From assembly GCA_041499965.1 (NCBI GenBank), contig JBGQLG010000007.1:1647-65646 (forward strand): a stretch of 64,000 nucleotides of DNA, read 5' to 3'. This document shows positions 1,513 through 11,302 of the stretch, piece after piece. The notes beneath the pieces were generated by a model. That model was given only the letters and a program-made list of their open reading frames with translations, had not been told where the DNA came from and ran no database searches. Source of the DNA: Candidatus Methylomirabilia bacterium. Lineage in GTDB: Bacteria > Methylomirabilota > Methylomirabilia > Rokubacteriales > CSP1-6. The translations under genes were made by a program, and so were the position numbers. Positions within the stretch are counted from its first letter, which is position 1; each line of letters opens with the position of its first letter.

Positions 1513-2823
1513 ATGGCTCCGGAGGACATCGACGCCATCGTGACGGCCGCCTGCGCCGTCGCCGCCGTCTATCGGCGCGTCGCGTCGCTCCTGCGCCGAA
1601 CCTCCGACGAGGCGCTCCGCGGCCTGGGGGTGCCGGGGCACCTGCTGGCCGGCACGCGGACCATCATGCCGGGCCTGGCCGACTGTGTGCTCGGACGCTT
1701 CGATCTCGTCCGCACGCCGCAGGGCTACCGGATGCTGGAGCTCAACGCCGACAACCCGGGCTTGCTGGTCGAGACGTTCTCGGTCAACGCCGAGGTCTGC
1801 CGCGAGACCCAGGCCCGGGATCCCAACGAGGGCGGCGAGCGCATCCTGGCCCGGCGGCTCACCGCCGCCGTGGCCGCCGCGGCCCGTCACGTCGGCAAGC
1901 GGAGCCTCGACGAGGCCAGGGTCGTGACGGCCTCCCACGGCGCGTATCCGCGCGACCGGGGTATCGCGACGTACCTCGCGCAGCTCCTCGAGGGATGCCG
2001 GGCGCGCTACCATCCCCTCCAGTCGCTGCAGATCGATGCCGAGGGGCTCTACGACCCGGCCGGCGATCGGATCGACGTCCTGTATCGGGTGTTCCCGCTG
2101 CAGTTCGTGCGCAACGAGCTGTTCGCGCCCCGGGGCGCCAGGATCGACCCGGAAATGGGCGGGCTCCTGCTCCGGCTCGTCGCCGACGGCCGGCTGGCTC
2201 TGATCAATCCTCCGGCGGCGTTCCGGCTCGAGAGCAAGGCGCTGCAGGCGGTCATCTGGAACCTCTTCGAGACCCGCCAGTACTTCAGCGACGAGGAGCT
2301 CGAGGCGATCGGGCGTTACATGCTGCCGACGTACCTGGTCCGGCCGGCCGGCGGCACCGCGTACGTGACCAAGCCGGCCTACGGGGGGACGGGCGACACG
2401 GTGTCGATCACGGGCCCGCGGGGCAGGGTCATCGGCCGGCCGGCGGCCACGACGTACGCGGATCACGTCATGGTCTACCAGCAGTACGTGCCGGTGGCGG
2501 CCCAGCCCATGATGACCGAGTACGGGCGGCGGCGGCTGCATCCCGTGGCGTCGTGCTTCGTCGTCGACGGCGAGGCCATGGGGATCGGCCTGCGCGCGGG
2601 CGCGGCCATCACGGACGAATCGGCGTGGGTGGTTCCACTCGTGGTCGGCAGTTGCACCCCTGGTGCGGCTCACGTAGCATCCGGTTCACCGCCACCCGAG
2701 CGGCGTCAGAAGTCAGAAGGAGGACATGCATGCCGCCCACCAAGCTGGCCCACGTCGTCTATCAGACCAACCGGATGGCGGAGATGCGTGACTGGTACGC
2801 GACCGTCCTCGGCGGTCACGTGA
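1513..2823 (+). CDS. glutathionylspermidine synthase family (pre-ATP-grasp) protein
   Basis: 436-aa ORF. Motifs GRFDLVRTPQGYRMLELNADNPG, LINPPAAFRLESKALQAVIW and VTKPAYGGTGDTV are typical of GspS-like amidoligases. The last 94 nt overlap the next gene, and the 5' end may lie upstream (no canonical start found there). Confidence 0.7.
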   Translation: MAPEDIDAIVTAACAVAAVYRRVASLLRRTSDEALRGLGVPGHLLAGTRTIMPGLADCVLGRFDLVRTPQGYRMLELNADNPGLLVETFSVNAEVCRETQARDPNEGGERILARRLTAAVAAAARHVGKRSLDEARVVTASHGAYPRDRGIATYLAQLLEGCRARYHPLQSLQIDAEGLYDPAGDRIDVLYRVFPLQFVRNELFAPRGARIDPEMGGLLLRLVADGRLALINPPAAFRLESKALQAVIWNLFETRQYFSDEELEAIGRYMLPTYLVRPAGGTAYVTKPAYGGTGDTVSITGPRGRVIGRPAATTYADHVMVYQQYVPVAAQPMMTEYGRRRLHPVASCFVVDGEAMGIGLRAGAAITDESAWVVPLVVGSCTPGAAHVASGSPPPERRQKSEGGHACRPPSWPTSSIRPTGWRRCVTGTRPSSAVT

Positions 2824-3275
2824 TCTACGAGAACCCGCATCTCTGCTTCGTCACCTACGACGACGAGCATCACCGCGTGGCCTTCGTCGACTTCGGTCCA
2901 CTGGCGCCGCGCGACCCCGCGGCGGGGGGCGAGCTGGGCCCCAAGCCCGTGGAGCAGGCGGGCCTGCACCACGTCGCCTTCACGTTCGCCTCGATGGGCG
3001 AGCTCCTCGACAATTACGTCCGCCTCCGCGATCGGGGCATTCGCCCGTTCTTCTGCGTGAACCACGGCCCCACGACGTCGATGTACTACCGCGACCCCGA
3101 CGGCAACCGTGTCGAGCTGCAGATCGACAACTTCGCCACGGCCGAGGAGGGGCAGGCCTGGATGCACTCCCCGGCGTTCGACGACAACCCGATCGGCGTC
3201 GAGTACGATCCCGATCAGCTGGTGAGCCGGTTCCGCGCCGGTGTGCCGGTGGCCGAGCTGGTCATTCGCGGCTAG
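2730..3275 (+). CDS. VOC/glyoxalase-family protein (extradiol dioxygenase-like)
   Basis: ATG at 2730, preceded by GAAGGAGGA. The protein MPPTKLAHVVYQTNRMAEMRDWYATVLGG...HHVAFTF...MYYRDPDGNRVELQ fits the VOC fold. It is the real 3' part of track ORF 1464..3275. Confidence 0.75.
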   Translation: MPPTKLAHVVYQTNRMAEMRDWYATVLGGHVIYENPHLCFVTYDDEHHRVAFVDFGPLAPRDPAAGGELGPKPVEQAGLHHVAFTFASMGELLDNYVRLRDRGIRPFFCVNHGPTTSMYYRDPDGNRVELQIDNFATAEEGQAWMHSPAFDDNPIGVEYDPDQLVSRFRAGVPVAELVIRG

Positions 3276-3283
3276 CGGCGACC

Positions 3284-4462
3284 ATGCCGCCCGGCCTCCG
3301 ACTGCGACAGCGGGCCGCCGTCTCCGGGCGCGCCCGCGCCGCCGAGCTGCCGCCGAACCTGCAGCGCTACGCCGACACCGGCGAGGCGCTGATCGCCGAG
3401 CCCTTCCGCGGCGTCACCGCGAACGGCACCGCCGTCGCCGGCCTCTTCCCGCTCCAGCCGACCGGCATCTCCACGCGCCCCCTCCTGCACGCGGCCGAGG
3501 CCTTCCTGGCCGCGCTCGGCGATGCGCAGCGGGCGCGCGTGTGTTTCGAGCTCGAGGCCGACGCCTGGCGCCGCTGGAGCAACATCCATCCGTTCGTCAT
3601 GCGGCACGGCGTCGCCCTCGACGAGCTGACGCCCGCCCAGCGCGAGCCGGCGCTGGCGCTCCTGCGTGAGAGCCTGAGCGCGGCGGGCTGGCGGACCGCC
3701 CGCGACGTCATGCGCCTGAACGAGCTCGTGCGCACGCTCACCGGCAGCGATGCGGAGTACGGTGAGTGGCTCTACTGGCTCAGCGTGATGGGCACGCCGT
3801 CGCCCGACGCGCCGTGGGGCTGGCAGCTCGACGGCCACCACCTGATCGTCAACTGCTTCGTCCTCGGCGATCAGGTCGTCATGACGCCGATGTTCATGGG
3901 CTCGGAGCCGGTGGCGGCCGAGACCGGACCGTACGCCGGCACGCGGGTGTTCGAGGCGGAGGAGCGGCAGGGACTGGCGCTCGTGCGCGCGCTCACGACG
4001 GAGCAGCGGCGGCGGGCCATCCTGAGCGGCGAGCTGCCCGGCGAGGTCTTCACCGCGGCCTTCCGCGACAACGTCGAGCTGACGTACGAGGGCCTCCGCT
4101 TCGGGGACCTGTCGAGCGCCCAGCAGCGGCTGCTGCTCGAGGTCCTCGAGACCTACGTCGGCCGTATCCGCCCCGGCCACGCCGGGGTCAGGCTGGATGA
4201 GGCCAACACGCATCTGGCCGACACGTGCTTCGCGTGGATGGGCGGCCTCGACGAGGACAGCGCGTTCTACTACCGGCTGCATAGCCCGGTGATCCTGATC
4301 GAGTTCGATCACCAGCGCGGGATCGTCTTCGACAACGACGCGCCGTCGCGCCACCACATCCACACGGTCGTGCGCACGCCCAACGGCAACGACTACGGCC
4401 GCGACCTCCTCCGCCAGCACCACGCGCGCTTCGACCACACGCGCGCCGACCACCGCCACTGA
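3284..4462 (+). CDS. DUF3500 family protein
   Basis: 392-aa ORF. WGWQLDGHHLIVNCF and FYYRLHSPVILIEFDH are the characteristic DUF3500 motifs as I recall them. Confidence 0.7.
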   Translation: MPPGLRLRQRAAVSGRARAAELPPNLQRYADTGEALIAEPFRGVTANGTAVAGLFPLQPTGISTRPLLHAAEAFLAALGDAQRARVCFELEADAWRRWSNIHPFVMRHGVALDELTPAQREPALALLRESLSAAGWRTARDVMRLNELVRTLTGSDAEYGEWLYWLSVMGTPSPDAPWGWQLDGHHLIVNCFVLGDQVVMTPMFMGSEPVAAETGPYAGTRVFEAEERQGLALVRALTTEQRRRAILSGELPGEVFTAAFRDNVELTYEGLRFGDLSSAQQRLLLEVLETYVGRIRPGHAGVRLDEANTHLADTCFAWMGGLDEDSAFYYRLHSPVILIEFDHQRGIVFDNDAPSRHHIHTVVRTPNGNDYGRDLLRQHHARFDHTRADHRH

Positions 4463-4475
4463 CGGCGCGCCCGCT

Positions 4476-4724
4476 TCAGCTCGTCCCGCGGATCCGCTCG
4501 GCCAGGAAGGTCGTGAGACGGCGGCGCAGCTCGGCCGGCATCTCGCTACGGCCGGCCTGGCCGACCGTCGTCACCGTCCGCCGGTAGGTGGCCAGGTAGG
4601 CGCGGCACGGCTCGCACAACTCGAGATGGGCCTCGAGCCGGGCGACGATCTCGGCGTCGAGCGTGCGATCGACGTACTCCAGCAGCACGGTGATCACGTC
4701 CTGGCAGGTCATCGACGCGCTCAT
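4476..4724 (-). CDS. soluble ZAS-type anti-sigma factor-like protein (zf-HC2, RsrA-like)
   Basis: 82 aa with the H-x3-C-x2-C motif (EAHLELCEPC) plus an upstream Cys (MTCQD). No TM segment. It starts 4 nt after the stop of the upstream NDH-2 gene. Confidence 0.65.
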   Translation of the reverse strand: MSASMTCQDVITVLLEYVDRTLDAEIVARLEAHLELCEPCRAYLATYRRTVTTVGQAGRSEMPAELRRRLTTFLAERIRGTS

Positions 4725-4728
4725 CGCC

Positions 4729-6333
4729 TCACGCGTTCCTCGACGCGATGAGCTGCTCGACGAAGCCCTTCAGCGGCGGCAGCGTCGCGAACATCGCCTG
4801 GAAGGCCTCGCGGTCCACGGCCAGGACGTTGGTCGCCGAGATCGCCCGCACCGTGGCCGAGCGCGCCATGTCGCTGACCAGCGCGATCTCGCCGAAGCAC
4901 TCGCCCAGGCCGAGCCGGCGCACCGGCTGCTCGCCCCGGCCGGGGACGGTCTTGAGCACCTCGACCTCGCCCTCGGTGATCACGTAGAGCCAGTCGCCGC
5001 GGTCGCCCTCGCGGAAGATCACCTGGCCGGGCTCGAAGTACTCGCGGCGCACGCCCAGGGCCCGGTCGGTCTTGAGCTGCACGATGTCGGGCGGCAGGAT
5101 CAGGTCCAGCGTCCAGTCGGTCGCCACCCGGATCTTGCGGTCGAGGCCGGGCAGCTTCATGAGGTAGATCGTCCGCCACAGCCACCAGGCCAGGAAGCCG
5201 GAGAGCTTGATGCCGAAGATCTCCGCGACCGCCGAGCGGCGGCCGAGCGCGCCCATCTTGCCGAGCGCGGTGAACATGAACGCCTTCTTCTCCGTCCCCT
5301 TGAGCGCCGCGACGATGTTGCGGGCGGCACCGACCGCCTCCCGCGTCGCGTGCTGGGCCGTCGGCGGGCAGAAGTCGCCGGTCTTGGCGTCGCGAATCGC
5401 CGCGCAGTCGCCCACCGCCCACAGCCCCGGGTACTCCGCCACCTCGAGGTTGGCGTCGACCAGGATCCGCCCGCGCTCCTTCTTCACCGGCAGCATGGCG
5501 ACCAGCGGGTTGGGACCGGACGGCACCGTGCTCACCAGGGTCCGGGTGGCGATGCGGCCGCCGCCGTCCAGCAGCGCCATGTCCACCGTGGCGCCGGTCA
5601 GACGCGTATTGAACCGGATCTCCACGCCGCGCTTCATCAGCAGCGTCTGGGCGAACTCGGCCAGCGACTTCGGCAGCTCGGGCAGGATGAGGCCGCCGGC
5701 GTGCAGCAGCACGACGCGGATCTCGTCGGGGCGGACGTTGCGAAAGCTCCGGGCGGCGGCGCGCACGAAGTCGTTCAGCTCGGCCACCGCCTCCACGCCC
5801 GAGAAGCCGCCGCCGGCCACCACGAAGGTGAGCAGGGCGCGCCGCAGCTCGCGGTCCTGCTCGATGTCGGCCTCCTCCAGCGTGTGGATGATCCGGTTGC
5901 GCAGGGTCAACGCGTCGCCCAGGTACTTGAAGGGCAGCGCGTACTCGGCCAGGCCGGGGGAGCCGGCGAACGAGGTCACGTTGCCGAGCGCCACCACCAG
6001 GTGGTCGAAGTGCAGGTGGTGCGCGCGGCTGCCGAAGCCGGCCGTCGACTGCACGCTGCGGTGGTTGAGGTCGATCGACTCGATCGTGCGCGTGTAGAGG
6101 TTGGTGTTGGGGCACAGCCGGCGGATCGGCGTGATCACGTCGAGCATGCCGATGCTGCCCGAGATCACCTCGGGGAGCATCGGCTGGAAGACGATGTAGT
6201 TCTCGCGGCTGACCAGGCCCAGCTCCACCTCGCCCCGGCGGATCTCGGCCTTGAGCATCTTCTCGAGCGTGAGGGCCGTGTAGACCCCGCCGAAACCGCC
6301 GCCGAGAATGAGGATGCGCGTGGGCTGGCTCAT
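4729..6333 (-). CDS. ndh: type II NADH dehydrogenase (NDH-2) with C-terminal cyclic-nucleotide-binding domain
   Basis: ATG at 6333 with GGAGG upstream. Two dinucleotide folds (ILILGGGFGG, VVAGGGFSGVE). The C-terminus carries a CAP_ED-like FREGDRGDWLYVITEGEVEV...FGEIALVSDMARSATV. It is the real 3' part of track ORF 4729..8169. Confidence 0.85.
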   Translation of the reverse strand: MSQPTRILILGGGFGGVYTALTLEKMLKAEIRRGEVELGLVSRENYIVFQPMLPEVISGSIGMLDVITPIRRLCPNTNLYTRTIESIDLNHRSVQSTAGFGSRAHHLHFDHLVVALGNVTSFAGSPGLAEYALPFKYLGDALTLRNRIIHTLEEADIEQDRELRRALLTFVVAGGGFSGVEAVAELNDFVRAAARSFRNVRPDEIRVVLLHAGGLILPELPKSLAEFAQTLLMKRGVEIRFNTRLTGATVDMALLDGGGRIATRTLVSTVPSGPNPLVAMLPVKKERGRILVDANLEVAEYPGLWAVGDCAAIRDAKTGDFCPPTAQHATREAVGAARNIVAALKGTEKKAFMFTALGKMGALGRRSAVAEIFGIKLSGFLAWWLWRTIYLMKLPGLDRKIRVATDWTLDLILPPDIVQLKTDRALGVRREYFEPGQVIFREGDRGDWLYVITEGEVEVLKTVPGRGEQPVRRLGLGECFGEIALVSDMARSATVRAISATNVLAVDREAFQAMFATLPPLKGFVEQLIASRNA

Positions 6334-8207
6334 CGTGGTGCCTCCGAAGAATTGGACACCGCGGCCGGGCGGCCCGGTGCGGAGGCAGCCTCCCGGAGCT
6401 GGGCCAGGATGGCCTGATCCATCGCGTCCACCGACGTCAGGTGGATGCGGACCAGCCGCACCCCGTCCCGGGCGACCATCCCCGTGACCTTGCCGTACAC
6501 GTCGCCCGACTCGCGGGCCGGATCGGGATAGGTCAGGCGCAGGCGGACGTTGGCCAGCGCCGCCAGCTCCACGCTCACCGCCGCCTCCAGGGCGCGGCGC
6601 CCCAGGCGGCGGACGGCCCCGGTGAACGCGTCGGCGTGCACGCGCTTGTCCTCGATGATGGCGCCCACGATCGGCAGGTCGACCTCGACCCCGGCGTCGC
6701 CGTCGGCCTCGGTCAGCCGCTGGGCGAAGCGGCCGCGCAGCCCGCGCAATTCGTAGAGCGCGATCGGGGCGGTCAGGCCCTTCAGCTCCACCGTGATCGG
6801 CGGCGCCACCTCGGCCAGATCGGTGAGCCGCTCGGCGGTGGCGGCCGTCATGAGGATCTGGCCACCGACGGTGCAGCCCTCGACGCGGGCGGCCAGGTTG
6901 ACGGCGGCGCCGACCACCGCGTACTTGGTCCGCTGCTCCGAGCCGATGTTGCCCACGACGGCCTCGCCCGTGTGCAGGCCGATGCCCATCTCGAAGACCG
7001 GGCGGCCGTGCTCGGCGTTGGCGCGGTTCAGGTCGTCGTTGGCCCGCTGCATGGCCAGCGCGGTCGCGGCCGCCCGCTCGGCGTGGTCGGCGTGCTCCAC
7101 CGGCGCGCCGAACACCGCGAAGATGGCGTCGCCGATGAACTCGTTGATGGTGCCGCCGTGCGCGATCACGATATCGGCCATGTGGCCGAGGTAGTCGTTC
7201 AGCACCGCCATGACGCCGGCGGGGTCGCCGTGCTCGGCAAAGCGGGTGTAGCCGCGCAGGTCGGACATGAGCACGGTGATCTCGCGCTTGTGGCCGCCCA
7301 GCCGCAGCCCGTCGGGCGACTCCAGCAGCGTCTTGGCGACCTCGGGGGAGACGTAGCGGCCGAAGGCGTTCCGGATGAAGTCCCGCTGGCGCAGTCCCTC
7401 GACCATCTCGTTGAACGCGCGCGTCAGCACGCCCACCTCGTCGCGGGAGCGCACCGGCAGCACCTGCGAGAGGTCGCCGGCCGCCACCCGGGCCACCGCG
7501 CCGGTGAGCGCGCTGATCGGCCGGGTGAGCTGGCGGGCGAACAGCAGGCCCAGCAGCAGCGCGCAGACGGCGCCGGCCGCCGAGCCTTGCATGATCGTGA
7601 GGTCGAGCTCGTGCAGCCGGTCGAGGAAGACGTCGACCTGGTAGTCGACGCTCAGGATCGCCACCGGCCGCCCCTGGGCGTCGACGATCGGCGCCACCGC
7701 GCTGATCCACGTGCCCTTGGCGTTGCGGTAGGCGCCGGTGTAGCGGGCGACGGCGTCCTCCAGGCTCCACGAGATCGGATCGAGCAGCTCGGGAGCGAGT
7801 GGATACCAGGTGCCCGGCCGCTCGGCCTCCTCGCTGGCGACGACGACGCGCGCCCGACGCCCGGCCCGGTCGTAGTCGGTCAGGGTCCGGATGGGCGTGG
7901 CCAGCAGGACCTCCCGCTGGACGGCCGCGAGCTTGGCCCGCAGGCTCCGGTAGGCCGGGGTGTCCTCGCGCTGCGCCTGCTGCACCGCGGCGTGCTGGGC
8001 CGGATCGACCAGCAGGACGGCGACCCGCGCGATGTTCAGCAGCTGGGTGCCGACGGCGTCCTCCAGCTCGGCCTTCTGGCGCGCGCGCACGAGCACCCCG
8101 ACGATCGTGATGCTGAGGAAGGTCAGCAGCGCGAAGGCCACCGCCAGGCGCACGGCCAGGCGCCGCCACGCGGGCAGCGCCGGCCGTGTCGACGGCTGGT
8201 CCGTCAC
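6330..8207 (-). CDS. membrane adenylate/guanylate cyclase (periplasmic sensor - HAMP - class III cyclase - about 130-aa C-terminal extension)
   Basis: Track ORF 6330..8282. The HAMP segment is RPISALTGAVARVAAGDL. The cyclase core reads VLMSDLRGYT...GDAIFAVFG...GLHTGEAVVGNIG...VNLAARVE. The start is placed at GTG 8207, one nt after the doxX stop. Its stop overlaps the ndh start (ATGA). Confidence 0.8.
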   Translation of the reverse strand: MTDQPSTRPALPAWRRLAVRLAVAFALLTFLSITIVGVLVRARQKAELEDAVGTQLLNIARVAVLLVDPAQHAAVQQAQREDTPAYRSLRAKLAAVQREVLLATPIRTLTDYDRAGRRARVVVASEEAERPGTWYPLAPELLDPISWSLEDAVARYTGAYRNAKGTWISAVAPIVDAQGRPVAILSVDYQVDVFLDRLHELDLTIMQGSAAGAVCALLLGLLFARQLTRPISALTGAVARVAAGDLSQVLPVRSRDEVGVLTRAFNEMVEGLRQRDFIRNAFGRYVSPEVAKTLLESPDGLRLGGHKREITVLMSDLRGYTRFAEHGDPAGVMAVLNDYLGHMADIVIAHGGTINEFIGDAIFAVFGAPVEHADHAERAAATALAMQRANDDLNRANAEHGRPVFEMGIGLHTGEAVVGNIGSEQRTKYAVVGAAVNLAARVEGCTVGGQILMTAATAERLTDLAEVAPPITVELKGLTAPIALYELRGLRGRFAQRLTEADGDAGVEVDLPIVGAIIEDKRVHADAFTGAVRRLGRRALEAAVSVELAALANVRLRLTYPDPARESGDVYGKVTGMVARDGVRLVRIHLTSVDAMDQAILAQLREAASAPGRPAAVSNSSEAPR

Positions 8208-8208
8208 G

Positions 8209-8697
8209 TCAGCGGCCCGCGGGATCCGCGGGATCCGCGGGCTCCAGGCCGATGGCGCGGTCGACCGATAGCGGGCCGCCACCGCGGGTGAGCAGGAAGA
8301 TCAGGATCGACGCCCACGTCAGGTGCTCGGCGTAGGCGTTCGGGTAGACGAAGGTCTGGATGACCGCGATCATGCCGAGCAGCGGCAACGTGGCCAGGCG
8401 CGTGCCCAGGCCCAGGATCAGCAGCACCGAGCAGCCGATCTCGAAGGTGGTCGACATCGCCGCCGCGAAGTCGGGCGGCAGCACCGGCACCTTGTACTCG
8501 TCGGCGAAGAGCTGCACGGTCAGCTCCCAGCTCGCCAGCTTGTTCAGGCCGGCCTTGAGGAACACGCCGGCGATCGCGAAGCGGAACAGGACCTGGATCA
8601 CGGCCAGCGGGAAGCGGCCGAGGTAGCTCAGCGCTCCCGCAATCCGGGTGCGCGCGCCCGACATGGGCATCATCGTCGTCGTCATCATCGTCTGCAT
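8209..8697 (-). CDS. DoxX family membrane protein with Met-rich N-terminus
   Basis: 162-aa ORF, multi-TM, with the DoxX-like [17 protein letters not shown]. The N-terminus is [12 protein letters not shown]. Confidence 0.8.
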
Positions 8698-8721
8698 GGT
8701 GTCGTCTCCCTGGTGGTTGGC

Positions 8722-8753
8722 GGGGCGGGCGGCGGCCAGCGCCGGCCCGCCCC
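8722..8753 (-). promoter_or_regulatory. intercistronic GC hairpin between the precursor gene and doxX
   Basis: GGGGCGGGC (8722-8730) pairs with GCCCGCCCC (8745-8753), a 9-bp perfect stem. It lies 11 nt downstream of the bufA-like stop on the transcribed strand. Confidence 0.4.
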
Positions 8754-8763
8754 TCGCCGGAGG

Positions 8764-9033
8764 TCAGGCCTTCTTGGGGTCCTTGCTGCCGCCCACGAGC
8801 TTCTCGCAGGCGCCGGCCGGCATGTAGAGCCAGGCGTCGTTCTGGTTGTCGCGCTTGGAGGTGCCCGCGCACGACGAGTTGGCGGTCTGGCAGTCGTTCT
8901 TGCCGGCCTTCGATACGCCGTAGCACTTCTCGGACTCGAACTTCGGCTTTGGGGCCGGGCCGGCCTGCGAGACGATCGGCATCGTGAGCGCGGCGGCCAC
9001 CGCGGAGGCGACGAGCAGCTGGGACGTCTTCAC
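8764..9033 (-). CDS. bufA: DUF2282 signal-peptide protein, bufferin-type RiPP precursor
   Basis: 89 aa. A Sec signal peptide ([24 protein letters not shown]) is followed by a 4-Cys core (EKCYG, NDCQT, SSCAG, GACEK). It neighbours DUF692, DUF2063 and DoxX genes. Confidence 0.8.
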
Positions 9034-9192: not shown

Positions 9193-10062
9193 ATGGACTC
9201 GCGGGTGTCCGGGCCGGGACCGAGGGGAAGCGGCATCGGTCTGCGCTCTCCACATGTTGACGAGATCCTGAACACCCGGCCGGACGTGGGCTGGCTCGAG
9301 GTGCACGCCGAGAACTACATGGGCGGGGGTCCGGCCATCCGGGCGCTGGAGCACATCCGCCGGGAGTATCCGGTGTCGATCCACGGCGTCGGCCTGTCGC
9401 TGGGGAGCGCGGAGGGGCTCGACGGCCACCACCTCGAGCGCCTGGCCGGGCTCGTCGAACGCCTGCAGCCGGCGCTCGTCTCCGAGCACCTCGCTTGGAG
9501 TCTCACCGGCGGCGCCTACCTGAATCACCTGCTCCCGCTGCCGTACACCCCGGAGACCCTGGCCCTCGTGAGCCGGCACGTCGATCGGGTGCAGCAGCGA
9601 CTGGGCCGCCGGCTGCTGGTCGAGAACCCGGCGAGCTACCTTCGCTTCGCCGACTCGCCGATTCCCGAGGCGGAGTTCCTGAACACCCTCGCCCGCCGGA
9701 CCGGCTGCGGCCTGCTCTGCGACGTGAACAACGTCTACGTGAGCTGCCGGAATCTGGGGGGCAACGCGGCCGCGTACCTCGACGCCGTCGATCCGGCGGC
9801 CGTCGGCGAGATCCATCTGGCCGGCCACGCCAGCAACGACGCCGACGGCCACACGGTCCTGATCGACGACCACGGCTCGCGCGTGGCCGAGGCCGTGTGG
9901 AATCTCTACGGCCAGGCGCTCGCGCGCTTCGGGCCGGTGCCGACGCTCGTGGAATGGGACACCAACGTGCCGGCGCTGGTGGTGCTGCTCGAGGAGGCGG
10001 CCAGGGCGGGCGCGATGCTGGGCGCCGCGGAGCGCGAGGGCGGCGATGCCCACGCTGCGTGA
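9193..10062 (+). CDS. bufB: DUF692 / MNIO (MbnB-like multinuclear non-heme iron oxidase) family protein
   Basis: This is the real 3' part of track ORF 8323..10062. [29 protein letters not shown] and VSEHLAW are typical DUF692 TIM-barrel motifs. The exact start is uncertain because there is no good SD before ATG 9193. Confidence 0.85.
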
Positions 10063-10795
10063 GCTGCAGTCCGGCTTCCGCGCCGCGATGCTGGGCGGCG
10101 ACGCGGCGGCGGCGCAGGCCGCGGTGCAACCGGATGGCCTCGCCGTCGAGGCCCGCCTGGCGATCTATCGTCATCACGTCTTCACGAGCCTGAGCGCCGC
10201 GCTGGAATCGACCTTCCCGGTCGTCGTCCGGCTGGTCGATCCGCGCTTTTTCCGCTACGCCGCCGACCGATTCGTGCGCGCGCATCCGCCCGCCAGCCCG
10301 TGCCTGTCGGAGTACGGTGCCACCCTGCCCGACTTCCTCGCCCGCTTCGAGCCCACCCGACACCTGGCCTATCTGCCGGACGTGGCGCGCCTGGAGTGGG
10401 CCATGAACGTCGCCCTGCACGCGCTCGACGCGGAACCCGTGCCGCCCGAGGCGCTGCGCGATCCGGCGCCCCTCGCGCTGCACCCGTCCGTCACGCTGCT
10501 GCAGTCGCCCTGGCCGATCGACACGATCTGGCGCGCCAACCAGCCCGCCGCCGGCGACGACACGGTCGATCTCGACACCGGCGGCGTGCACCTGCAAGTC
10601 TGGCGCTCGACCGACGACGTCGTGTTCCGCCGGCTCTCCGCCGCCGCGTTCGCCTTCCACCGGGCGCTGGCCCAGACCAGCCGCCTCGACGCCGCCGCCC
10701 ACGCGGCCGTGTCCATCACCCCCGGCGCCGACCTCCCCTGCCTGATCCGCGACCTCCTCGCCGACCAGATCCTGGTCCATCGAGCCCCGCCGTAA
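10046..10795 (+). CDS. bufC: DUF2063 protein (MNIO partner, BufC-like)
   Basis: 249 aa. It overlaps the bufB end by 17 nt. [16 protein letters not shown]...LAIYRHHVF is the characteristic DUF2063 N-domain. Confidence 0.8.
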
Positions 10796-10816: not shown

Positions 10817-11302
10817 ATGAACGATCTGACCCCGCTCGCCTCGTCCCTGGCGGCCGTGTTGAAGGAGCGGAAAGAAACGCTGGCCGTCGCCGAGTCCTCG
10901 GCCGGCGGCCTGATCTCGGCGGCGCTGCTCGCCGTGCCCGGCGCCTCGGCGTACTTCCTCGGCGGCGCCGTCGTCTACACGCAGGCGGCGCGACGCGCAC
11001 TCCTGCGCGTGCCTGACGAATCGCTGGCCGGCATCCGCTCCAGCACCGAGGCCTACGCGGCGATCAAGGCCAGGACGATTCGCGAGCTGCTCGGCGCCAC
11101 CTGGGGCCTGGCCGAGACCGGCGCTACCGGGCCGACCGGCAACCGTTACGGCGACGCGGCGGGCCACGCTTGCATCGCCATCGCCGGCCCGATCGAGCGC
11201 ACGCTGACGATCGAGACGCGCAGCGGCGATCGCGAGGCGAACATGTGGGCGTTCGCGAAGGCGGCGCTCGACCTGCTGCAGACGTCGCTGCGGCGGGCGT
11301 AG
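10817..11302 (+). CDS. CinA C-terminal domain / nicotinamide-nucleotide amidohydrolase (PncC-like)
   Basis: 161 aa. LAVAESSAGGLISAAL and GATGPTG...GHACIAIAG match the CinA_C family. Confidence 0.75.
   Translation: MNDLTPLASSLAAVLKERKETLAVAESSAGGLISAALLAVPGASAYFLGGAVVYTQAARRALLRVPDESLAGIRSSTEAYAAIKARTIRELLGATWGLAETGATGPTGNRYGDAAGHACIAIAGPIERTLTIETRSGDREANMWAFAKAALDLLQTSLRRA

Follow-up and report, generated by a model that had tools for sequence, protein, structure and literature searches.

A sensor nucleotidyl cyclase and an NDH-2 with a cyclic-nucleotide-binding domain as a candidate second-messenger pair in a bufferin locus of Methylomirabilota

Can a nucleotide second messenger control the entry of electrons into a bacterial quinone pool? 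The question is raised by a 64,000-nucleotide stretch of contig JBGQLG010000007.1 from a Candidatus Methylomirabilia bacterium (hereafter the window, meaning the whole stretch that was analyzed), in which the gene for a membrane-bound sensor cyclase overlaps ndh, a gene encoding a type II NADH dehydrogenase (NDH-2) with a C-terminal cyclic-nucleotide-binding (CNB) domain. A first-pass annotation had proposed a self-contained circuit, in which an adenylate cyclase would gate a respiratory NDH-2. Our analysis leads us to favor, at somewhat better than even confidence, a modified proposal: the cyclase and the CNB-bearing NDH-2 are a second-messenger pair within a bufferin/DoxX stress operon, the cyclase probably forms cyclic GMP (cGMP), and its product sets the state of an NDH-2 that acts on the quinone pool. 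Domain architecture, residue conservation, synteny and recurrence carry this proposal. Domain searches against Pfam recovered every domain call made at first pass, including the fusion of Pyr_redox_2 with cNMP_binding, and the two genes and their parts are as follows.

6330-8207, minus strand: sensor nucleotidyl cyclase, 625 aa (Pfam HAMP and Guanylate_cyc)
7593-8075, minus strand: periplasmic sensor domain of the cyclase, residues 45-205 (AlphaFold2 model, mean confidence pLDDT 89.8)
7386-7544, minus strand: HAMP domain of the cyclase, residues 222-274 (Pfam HAMP, E 4e-17)
6777-7286, minus strand: class III catalytic domain of the cyclase, residues 308-477 (alignment to 2w01 and 6fht)
6372-6743, minus strand: C-terminal extension of the cyclase, a predicted PilZ-like beta-barrel, residues 489-612 (AlphaFold2 model, pLDDT 80.6)
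4729-6333, minus strand: ndh, fusion of NDH-2 and CNB, 534 aa (Pfam Pyr_redox_2, NDH2_C and cNMP_binding)
5101-6333, minus strand: NDH-2 module of the fusion, residues 1-411 (Pfam Pyr_redox_2, E 8e-34, and NDH2_C)
4786-5043, minus strand: CNB domain of the fusion, residues 431-516 (Pfam cNMP_binding, E 5e-23)

The CNB domain scored 81.2 bits against Pfam PF00027 (cutoff 27.5) and matched the CNB domains of the protein kinases PKA and PKG with E values of 1e-20 to 1e-24. Its phosphate-binding cassette, F480-GEIALVSDMARSATV, includes G481, E482, R491, S492 and A493, and the textbook form of the cassette, FGEIALVSDMARSATV, is kept in 119 of 120 orthologs. The nucleotide-contacting Glu and Arg, whose loss the first-pass annotation had named as evidence against its own proposal, are thus retained. 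Among 26 diverse fusions with 33-60% identity, the Gly-Glu pair was invariant and the Arg and the Ala were each conserved in at least 90% of the sequences.

The remainder of the protein is, on full-length homology, dinucleotide-binding motifs and the presence of the membrane-anchor region NDH2_C (33.1 bits, cutoff 27.7), an NDH-2-type enzyme. Solved NDH-2 structures matched it with E values of 1e-45 (9mqy, over residues 5-411) and 6e-38 (4nwz), and two GxGxxG motifs (GGGFGG at residue 11 and GGGFSG at 174), together with GDCA at 308, are conserved in 137 members of the clade. An assignment to sulfide:quinone reductases or to another group of flavoprotein disulfide reductases was rejected, as the best matches were to NDH-2, NDH2_C was present, and the sulfide:quinone reductase model covered only residues 6-130, with 28 bits against 525. 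Where the second beta-strand of the NAD(H) fold ends, the protein has His211 (codon 5701-5703), aligned with Glu in 4nwz and with Asp in 9mqy. This position is mostly His or Gln across the clade, in fusions and plain NDH-2 alike, which suggests the use of NADPH or of both cofactors and still allows membership in the NDH-2 family. The quinone-site motif AQxAxQ reads AQHATR, with the last Gln replaced by Arg in most of the clade.

The partner gene encodes a protein in which a transmembrane segment, a domain resembling a single Cache (sCache) domain, a second transmembrane segment, a HAMP domain, an FGRY transducer element, a class III catalytic domain and a PilZ-like barrel follow one another. 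Its best solved match was Cya2 (2w01, E 2e-50), with about 55% identity across the catalytic domain. In an alignment of 121 orthologs with 62-96% identity, the metal-binding Asp316 and Asp360, the transition-state residues Asn437 and Arg441, and the specificity residues Glu356 and Ala430 were all invariant. The stretch INEFIGD aligns with IDEFMGD of Cya2, and TKYAVVGAAVN with TKYGVVGAQVN. The protein had been called an adenylate cyclase at first pass, a name that these residues do not support: the positions that specify adenine are occupied in adenylate cyclases by Lys and by Asp (or Thr), and in this enzyme by Glu356 and Ala430. The guanylate cyclase Cya2 has Glu and Gly there, and the substitution E488K converts it to an adenylate cyclase (PMC5995499, PMC4215837). 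On the evidence of these residues, the window enzyme is not a canonical adenylate cyclase; it is predicted to be active and either GTP-preferring or promiscuous, and cGMP is the more likely product. What limits certainty about the product is the Ala at the second specificity position, which is Gly in Cya2, and Ala440, which takes the place of the activity-enhancing Tyr ahead of the catalytic Arg in Cya2.

The periplasmic sensor and HAMP domain that had been described for the cyclase were both recovered, the latter by Pfam and the former by structure prediction. Modeling indicates that the region between the two transmembrane segments has a single-Cache/PDC fold, the top Foldseek matches of the model being the sensor domains of DcuS, CitA, DctB and KinD (E about 2e-5); Pfam matches to dCache_1 and sCache_3_2 were weak and sub-threshold. 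The C-terminal extension, left unassigned at first pass, was modeled as a beta-barrel followed by a C-terminal helix, and about 29 of its top Foldseek matches were PilZ domains, including those of BcsA, MotI, Alg44 and YcgR (best E 2e-4; TM-score up to 0.67, normalized to the target). Ahead of the barrel lies an RxxxR motif (R493-FAQ-R497), in which R493 is invariant and R497 is at least 90% conserved. In place of the second PilZ motif, [D/N]xSxxG, there is a conserved DKRVHA roughly at the expected place, as judged by motif spacing known from the literature and not by residue alignment. Pfam PilZ gave no match to the extension at E values up to 10, so the assignment as PilZ-like is one of predicted fold.

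On the minus strand of the window, which has a G+C content of 71%, the genes run in the order bufA, a 66-nt spacer, doxX, cyclase, ndh and a gene for a protein of the zinc-associated anti-sigma (ZAS) type. The five genes, their coordinates and their tight junctions were all as first annotated. The cyclase stop and the ndh start share the sequence ATGA (6330-6333), and the ndh stop lies 4 nt ahead of the ATG of the ZAS gene; Shine-Dalgarno-like sequences precede the ndh start (GGAGG) and the ZAS start (GAGG), and none was seen ahead of the cyclase GTG. A single nucleotide separates the doxX stop from that GTG at 8207 (TGAcGTG). The start of the cyclase is uncertain by up to 18 codons, as gene callers give lengths of 607-625 aa (607 aa in the NCBI call for the near-identical contig L001, and 609-625 aa in orthologs), and the gap between doxX and the cyclase is therefore between 1 and about 55 nt. 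Overlapping gene junctions are commonplace in bacterial operons, so the tightness of the junctions is by itself unremarkable. What is above chance is the conservation of the junctions in orthologs and the recurrence of the pairing of cyclase and NDH-2 elsewhere.

To follow both, we used related loci (numbered with L), including those of a scan with an alignment of eight fusion sequences. Because clustering of neighboring open reading frames (ORFs) from six-frame translation was noisy, it was used only for families confirmed by targeted searches. The ATGA overlap of cyclase and ndh was conserved within Methylomirabilota in L001-L005, L088-L091 and L010. The entire order bufA-doxX-cyclase-ndh-ZAS, with overlapping stops and starts, was found at 80-82% identity in L005, L088 and L090/L091. 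In L010 the cyclase-ndh pair is intact with its ATGA, beside genes for an extracytoplasmic function (ECF) sigma factor and a ZAS protein, although the complete bufABC-doxX operon of this locus is on the opposite strand; the orthologous cyclase of L008 and ndh are in convergent orientation. The pairing also appeared in a second phylum. In two metagenome-assembled genomes (MAGs) of Acidobacteriota, cyclases unrelated to that of the window and with other sensor modules immediately precede the fusion on its own strand, one with an FHA domain and the specificity residues Lys/Thr (L017), the other with a Cys-rich N-terminal domain and Lys/Asp (L013). A cyclase or an extra CNB gene lay within 5 kb of 14 of 55 fusion loci, compared to none of 28 loci of closely related plain NDH-2.

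Several other arrangements were seen around the fusion. A second class III cyclase (more than 1100 aa) lies 3.8 kb downstream of the fusion in L010 (11633-12193), with Gln at its first specificity position (VNQVMGD). In a relative with 77% identity (L006/L007, 8892-9945), a STAS gene, an ECF sigma gene and an ORF of 50-57 aa precede the gene for NDH-2 and CNB and take the place of the cyclase, and a DoxD/DoxX gene followed by a zf-HC2 gene is located 9 kb upstream on the contig. A further CNB protein, this one with a fused FHA domain, flanks the fusion at a distance of about 0.6-1.3 kb in L026, L027, L035, L037, L038 and L049, which belong to Acidobacteriota of the Bryobacterales/Acidoferrum type and one Chloroflexia MAG; most of these loci also have an adjacent gene for a small c-type cytochrome (CxxCH). 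No second cyclase, second CNB protein or STAS protein was detectable anywhere in the 64-kb window.

The fusion itself is widespread. Among the best 150 matches, which were representatives of clusters at 50% identity, an NDH-2 was followed by a CNB domain in 74, and full-length matches in species-representative genomes carried MAG labels spanning about 11 phyla. These labels were Methylomirabilota/Rokubacteria, Acidobacteriota, Planctomycetota, Myxococcota, Chlamydiota and Verrucomicrobiota, and further Chloroflexota, Ignavibacteriae, Armatimonadota, Solirubrobacteraceae and Gammaproteobacteria. A taxonomic look-up by cluster for 10 representatives gave a single taxon, Elusimicrobiota, and was set aside. 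The combination has no NCBIfam model, and a full-text literature search for NDH-2 or NADH dehydrogenase together with cyclic-nucleotide binding found no description of a fusion enzyme. The possibility, raised at first pass, that the fusion would prove to be both common and already characterized was borne out in its first half only, and the statement that no cyclic-nucleotide-regulated NDH-2 had been described agrees with the lack of any publication on such an enzyme in that search. As far as can be told, the fusion is common but uncharacterized.

The genes that surround the pair bear on the purpose that it may serve.

8764-9033, minus strand: bufA, bufferin-1-type precursor (Pfam DUF2282, E 1e-22)
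8718-8758, minus strand: G+C-rich hairpin in the 66-nt spacer between bufA and doxX, 8698-8763 (RNA fold)
8209-8697, minus strand: doxX, bufD-like membrane DoxX protein (Pfam DoxX, E 3e-16)
4476-4724, minus strand: ZAS protein (zf-HC2) of 82 aa, cytoplasmic, RsrA-like (Pfam zf-HC2, E 3e-8)
9193-10062, plus strand: bufB, MNIO bufferin maturase, divergent from bufA, start as in the L001 gene call (NCBIfam MNIO_BufB, 377 bits, cutoff 310)
10046-10795, plus strand: bufC, DUF2063/HvfC-type partner protein (Pfam DUF2063, E 1e-22)

The first-pass assignment to a metal-stress locus for a ribosomally synthesized and post-translationally modified peptide (RiPP) can be made specific: with BufB above its curated cutoff and with BufC, a DUF2282 precursor and DoxX also present, the Buf1 set is complete and this is a bufferin locus. 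BufA has a signal-peptide-like N-terminus and four Cys at positions 37, 48, 55 and 76. DoxX scored 52.6 bits against the NCBIfam HvfX family, below the cutoff of 80. The spacer hairpin has a predicted energy of -38.9 kcal/mol, a z value of only -1.7 against shuffled sequences, and is not followed by a U-tract; we rejected it as evidence of a canonical terminator or of attenuation, since it is real but not unusual for its composition and has no U-tract. Just ahead of the doxX stop lies a 9-nt tandem repeat (gcggatccc, two copies, encoding Pro-Ala-Asp repeats; 8212-8240, minus strand). One copy, or three codons, is lacking in L001, whose doxX product has 159 aa against 162 in the window, so that a length polymorphism sits right at the junction of doxX and the cyclase.

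In orthologous loci, a gene for a GDE_N/GDE_C glycoside hydrolase, similar to glycogen-debranching enzymes, lies between bufB and bufA (L005, 5223-7250; L088, 2377-4386; L090, 1901-3943). A gene of this kind also occurs near this NDH-2 clade in L006 (4178-6157) and in the Acidobacteriota loci L056, L062, L064, L065 and L080, and is absent from the bufB-bufA gap of the window. Directly after bufC is a CinA-family gene (10817-11302, plus strand), beyond which the L001 gene calls place a small ORF, a response-regulator gene and a hemerythrin gene; all four may be further members of the stress locus.

The ZAS protein has the ligand residues Cys7, His33, Cys37 and Cys40, forming HxxxCxxC with an upstream Cys. 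It scored 33.9 bits against Pfam zf-HC2 (cutoff 22.2) and 39 bits against the NCBIfam RsrA model (below the cutoff of 62.5). The spacing from Cys to His is 26 residues, as in RsrA (Cys11/His37). Its sigma partner had been reported as missing from the window, and searches of the 64 kb with E. coli RpoE and the ECF sigma factor of L006 as queries likewise found no ECF sigma gene. In the Acidobacteriota loci L060, L063 and L071, a homolog of the ZAS gene immediately follows an ECF sigma gene and neighbors a plain relative of the NDH-2, and a homolog adjoins an ECF sigma gene in L010. This adjacency supports a role of the ZAS protein as a putative anti-sigma factor whose partner is encoded elsewhere in the genome, one candidate being the ortholog of the STAS-linked ECF sigma factor found ahead of ndh in L006/L007. 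Three genes converge on the ZAS gene: a DUF3500 gene (3284-4462, plus strand) and two others known from the L001 gene calls, one of the glyoxalase family (about 2784-3275, plus strand) and one similar to glutathionylspermidine synthase (GSP_synth, about 1513-2823, plus strand), so that genes of thiol metabolism adjoin a redox-sensing ZAS protein.

Members of the NDH-2 clade, both plain and CNB-bearing, recur beside bufB, bufC or doxX in genomes labeled Methylomirabilota, Binatus/'delta proteobacterium', Tepidisphaeraceae and Gammaproteobacteria. The chain bufA-doxX-(cyclase)-ndh-ZAS was found in L005, L088 and L090, and minus the cyclase in the P0114 locus. The order bufB-bufC-ndh was seen in a member of the Tepidisphaeraceae (L073), and ndh is convergent with bufCB in L072, L075 and L084. 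In a Gammaproteobacteria MAG (L074, 783-1127 and 3657-6199), a precursor with EGKCG repeats (oxazolin type), bufB, bufC, doxX, a 159-aa membrane ORF and the NDH-2 gene share one strand; this NDH-2 has a degenerate CNB-like domain without the cassette Arg and, following it, a CBS-like domain. NADH dehydrogenases are not among the genes that surveys of bufferin clusters report, which include DoxX, sigma factors and anti-sigma factors of the NrsF type (PMC11626156, PMC12452194); in the paper on the MNIO landscape the term has 0 occurrences. In Caulobacter, neither bufferin modification nor copper protection depended on DoxX (PMC11626156), and NDH-2 of E. coli has been listed among quinol-dependent Cu(II) reductases (PMC7558416). 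The NDH-2 of the window may therefore supply quinol for a DoxX-linked redox or copper function in the envelope. The label 'respiratory' given to the enzyme at first pass is unproven, in view of the His that the clade has in place of Glu or Asp and of its repeated occurrence next to doxX and bufferin genes; a role as a quinone reductase dedicated to the stress locus is possible instead.

In our proposal, the stretch forms the distal end of a bufferin operon for copper or redox stress in a Methylomirabilota bacterium of the Rokubacteria type, with a second-messenger pair dedicated to it. A small-molecule signal in the periplasm would turn on the cyclase, whose product would most likely be cGMP and possibly both cyclic nucleotides. 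Binding of this product to the CNB domain would alter the activity, the dimer state or the membrane engagement of NDH-2, and so tune the input of electrons from NAD(P)H to quinone. Given how often members of the NDH-2 clade are found right next to doxX and bufferin genes, the quinol would probably serve the redox or copper defense of the envelope through DoxX and bufferin, and not bulk respiration. The RsrA-like ZAS protein encoded at the end of the operon would hold an ECF sigma factor encoded elsewhere.

Each part of the locus has known relatives. Canonical NDH-2 enzymes (4nwz of Caldalkalibacillus thermarum, 9mqy, 5na1 of S. aureus and the yeast Ndi1, 4g6g) share with it the two dinucleotide folds, GDCA and NDH2_C (E 1e-45 to 1e-23), and differ in lacking the additional C-terminal CNB region of about 120 aa, in having Glu or Asp at the position of His211 and AQxAxQ in place of AQHATR, and in their respiratory setting, whereas the window gene sits in a stress-locus operon. 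In plants and fungi, the external NAD(P)H dehydrogenases of mitochondria (NDB/NDE) are NDH-2 enzymes with an inserted EF-hand that makes them dependent on Ca2+. There, too, a second messenger acts through a built-in regulatory domain, although the messenger is Ca2+, the hosts are eukaryotic and the EF-hand is not homologous to CNB. The cAMP-activated acetyltransferase Pat of mycobacteria and the EAL phosphodiesterase Bd1971 of Bdellovibrio each have a CAP-type CNB domain that acts as an allosteric switch on the catalytic domain to which it is fused, and the window CNB domain matched the NCBIfam Pat model (E 3e-11) and the Bd1971 structures 6hq2-6hq7 (E about 5e-11). Unlike these, the window enzyme joins its CNB domain to a membrane flavoenzyme of the quinone pool and has that domain at the C-terminus, straight after the membrane anchor.

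Cya2 of Synechocystis PCC 6803 has in common with the window cyclase the Glu at the base-specifying position, the FGRY element, a membrane sensor at the N-terminus and a C-terminal extension, which spans residues 638-756 in Cya2; the window cyclase differs in having sCache and HAMP domains instead of CHASE2, Ala instead of Gly, Ala440 instead of Tyr, and an extension that is PilZ-like. That extension resembles the PilZ receptors of cyclic di-GMP (c-di-GMP) BcsA, YcgR, Alg44 and MotI in its predicted barrel, C-terminal helix and RxxxR N-terminal of the barrel, and departs from them in having no D/NxSxxG and no Pfam match; its attachment to a nucleotidyl cyclase is unusual. The bufABCD cluster of Caulobacter vibrioides likewise combines a four-Cys DUF2282 precursor, an MNIO BufB, a DUF2063 BufC and a DoxX. 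Compared to known bufferin clusters, the window has bufA-doxX divergent from bufBC, an anti-sigma factor of the ZAS type and not NrsF, and the cyclase and the fusion as extra genes. Association of Buf1 clusters with ECF sigma/anti-sigma regulation has been described (PMC11626156, PMC12452194). Like RsrA-type proteins, the ZAS protein is small and soluble, with HxxxCxxC and an upstream Cys; the difference is that no sigma gene is adjacent or in the window.

A number of observations weigh against a second-messenger pair. A relative with 79% identity (the P0114 locus) has bufA-doxX-ndh-ZAS without the cyclase, no cyclase was within reach in L006/L007 and L009, and in other phyla the majority of fusion loci have none within 10 kb. 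The cyclase is thus not obligatory. The contrast in cyclase or CNB neighbors between fusion and plain loci gives a Fisher p of 0.0019 for 14/55 against 0/28, a statistic that ignores shared ancestry. Of the first-pass claims on the pairing, the conserved ATGA, the independent adjacency in a second phylum and the difference in co-occurrence uphold the link between the two genes, and the absence of a cyclase from one close relative and from most loci in other phyla removes the description 'self-contained'. Effector genes without a nearby cyclase are the usual pattern for second-messenger effectors. The cassette is degenerate in some fusion representatives, L074 among them, and the Glu/Ala pair differs from the Glu/Gly of Cya2, whose guanylate-boosting Tyr is replaced by Ala440. 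Promoter, terminator and Rfam scans found nothing in or between the genes, with sigma-70 and U-tract models saying little at 71% G+C; co-transcription, the identity of the ligand, the allosteric effect of a nucleotide on catalysis and the link to DoxX are all inferred.

These points leave room for three other explanations. The same circuit could run on cAMP, made by an adenylate or promiscuous cyclase and sensed by a CNB domain that responds to it, a version that we regard as possible though less likely. The cassette Arg-Ser/Thr is common to cAMP and cGMP receptors (CRP has Arg-Ser), outside Methylomirabilota the cyclases next to the fusion have the adenylate-type residues Lys/Asp or Lys/Thr, and the Tyr that enhances guanylate cyclase activity in Cya2 is Ala440 here. 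Yet the Lys that specifies ATP is replaced by a Glu356 that is invariant in 121 orthologs, the single position at which E488K turns Cya2 from GTP to ATP, and the closest solved homolog, at about 55% identity over the catalytic domain, is a guanylate cyclase. A CNB-like domain that binds no cyclic nucleotide, serving in dimerization or membrane docking or binding another ligand beside a coincidental cyclase, appears very improbable. Many CNB folds of the CRP/FNR superfamily do bind other ligands or none, a recognizable cassette is missing in some fusion representatives, and most fusion loci have no nearby cyclase; such a domain would nonetheless have to account for the full canonical FGE-x-A-L...R-[ST]-A-T-V in the window protein and 119/120 orthologs, for 81 bits against Pfam cNMP_binding and the kinase matches at E 1e-20 to 1e-24, and for an adjacency to cyclases that recurs independently in two phyla.

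The NDH-2-like protein might, finally, be mainly an accessory reductase of bufferin and DoxX, passing quinol to DoxX or reducing Cu(II), with a minor or vestigial CNB domain and a loosely linked cyclase whose main targets lie elsewhere. We consider this unlikely as a full account, even though it agrees with the bufA-doxX-ndh-ZAS chain that exists minus the cyclase, with the plain and CNB-bearing clade members in or near bufB/bufC/doxX loci of several lineages, with the listing of E. coli NDH-2 as a quinol-dependent Cu(II) reductase (PMC7558416), and with the His or Gln at position 211 in most of the clade, where Glu or Asp would specify NADH. It is opposed by the strong conservation of the cassette and by a cyclase/ndh overlap that persists in L010 despite the different placement of the pair with respect to the buf genes there; moreover, it overlaps the second-messenger reading and does not exclude it.

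If the pair works as we propose, it would be the first case of cyclic-nucleotide control over electron entry into a bacterial quinone pool, and NDH-2 would join a short list. To our knowledge, only a handful of effectors of bacterial cGMP signaling have been described, so that this would be one of very few. NDH-2 is a major entry point for electrons in bacterial respiratory chains and a drug target, and our literature search found no NDH-2 under the control of a nucleotide second messenger. A conserved Cya2-like cyclase beside a CNB-bearing NDH-2 offers a directly testable case, requiring one purified enzyme and two nucleotides. A positive result would generalize, because the fusion is present in about 11 phyla, and would reveal an overlooked and widespread layer of respiratory and redox regulation. 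More speculatively, we can picture a periplasm-sensing guanylate cyclase whose cGMP directly gates NDH-2 and so conveys an envelope signal to the copper and redox defense of DoxX and bufferin, with the PilZ-like barrel adding control by c-di-GMP or by product feedback, and with messenger control of NDH-2 extending over those phyla; in this full form the scheme is a tentative one. The locus points to a connection, so far undescribed, of the quinone pool with bufferin/DoxX stress loci, which may help to explain the role of DoxX.

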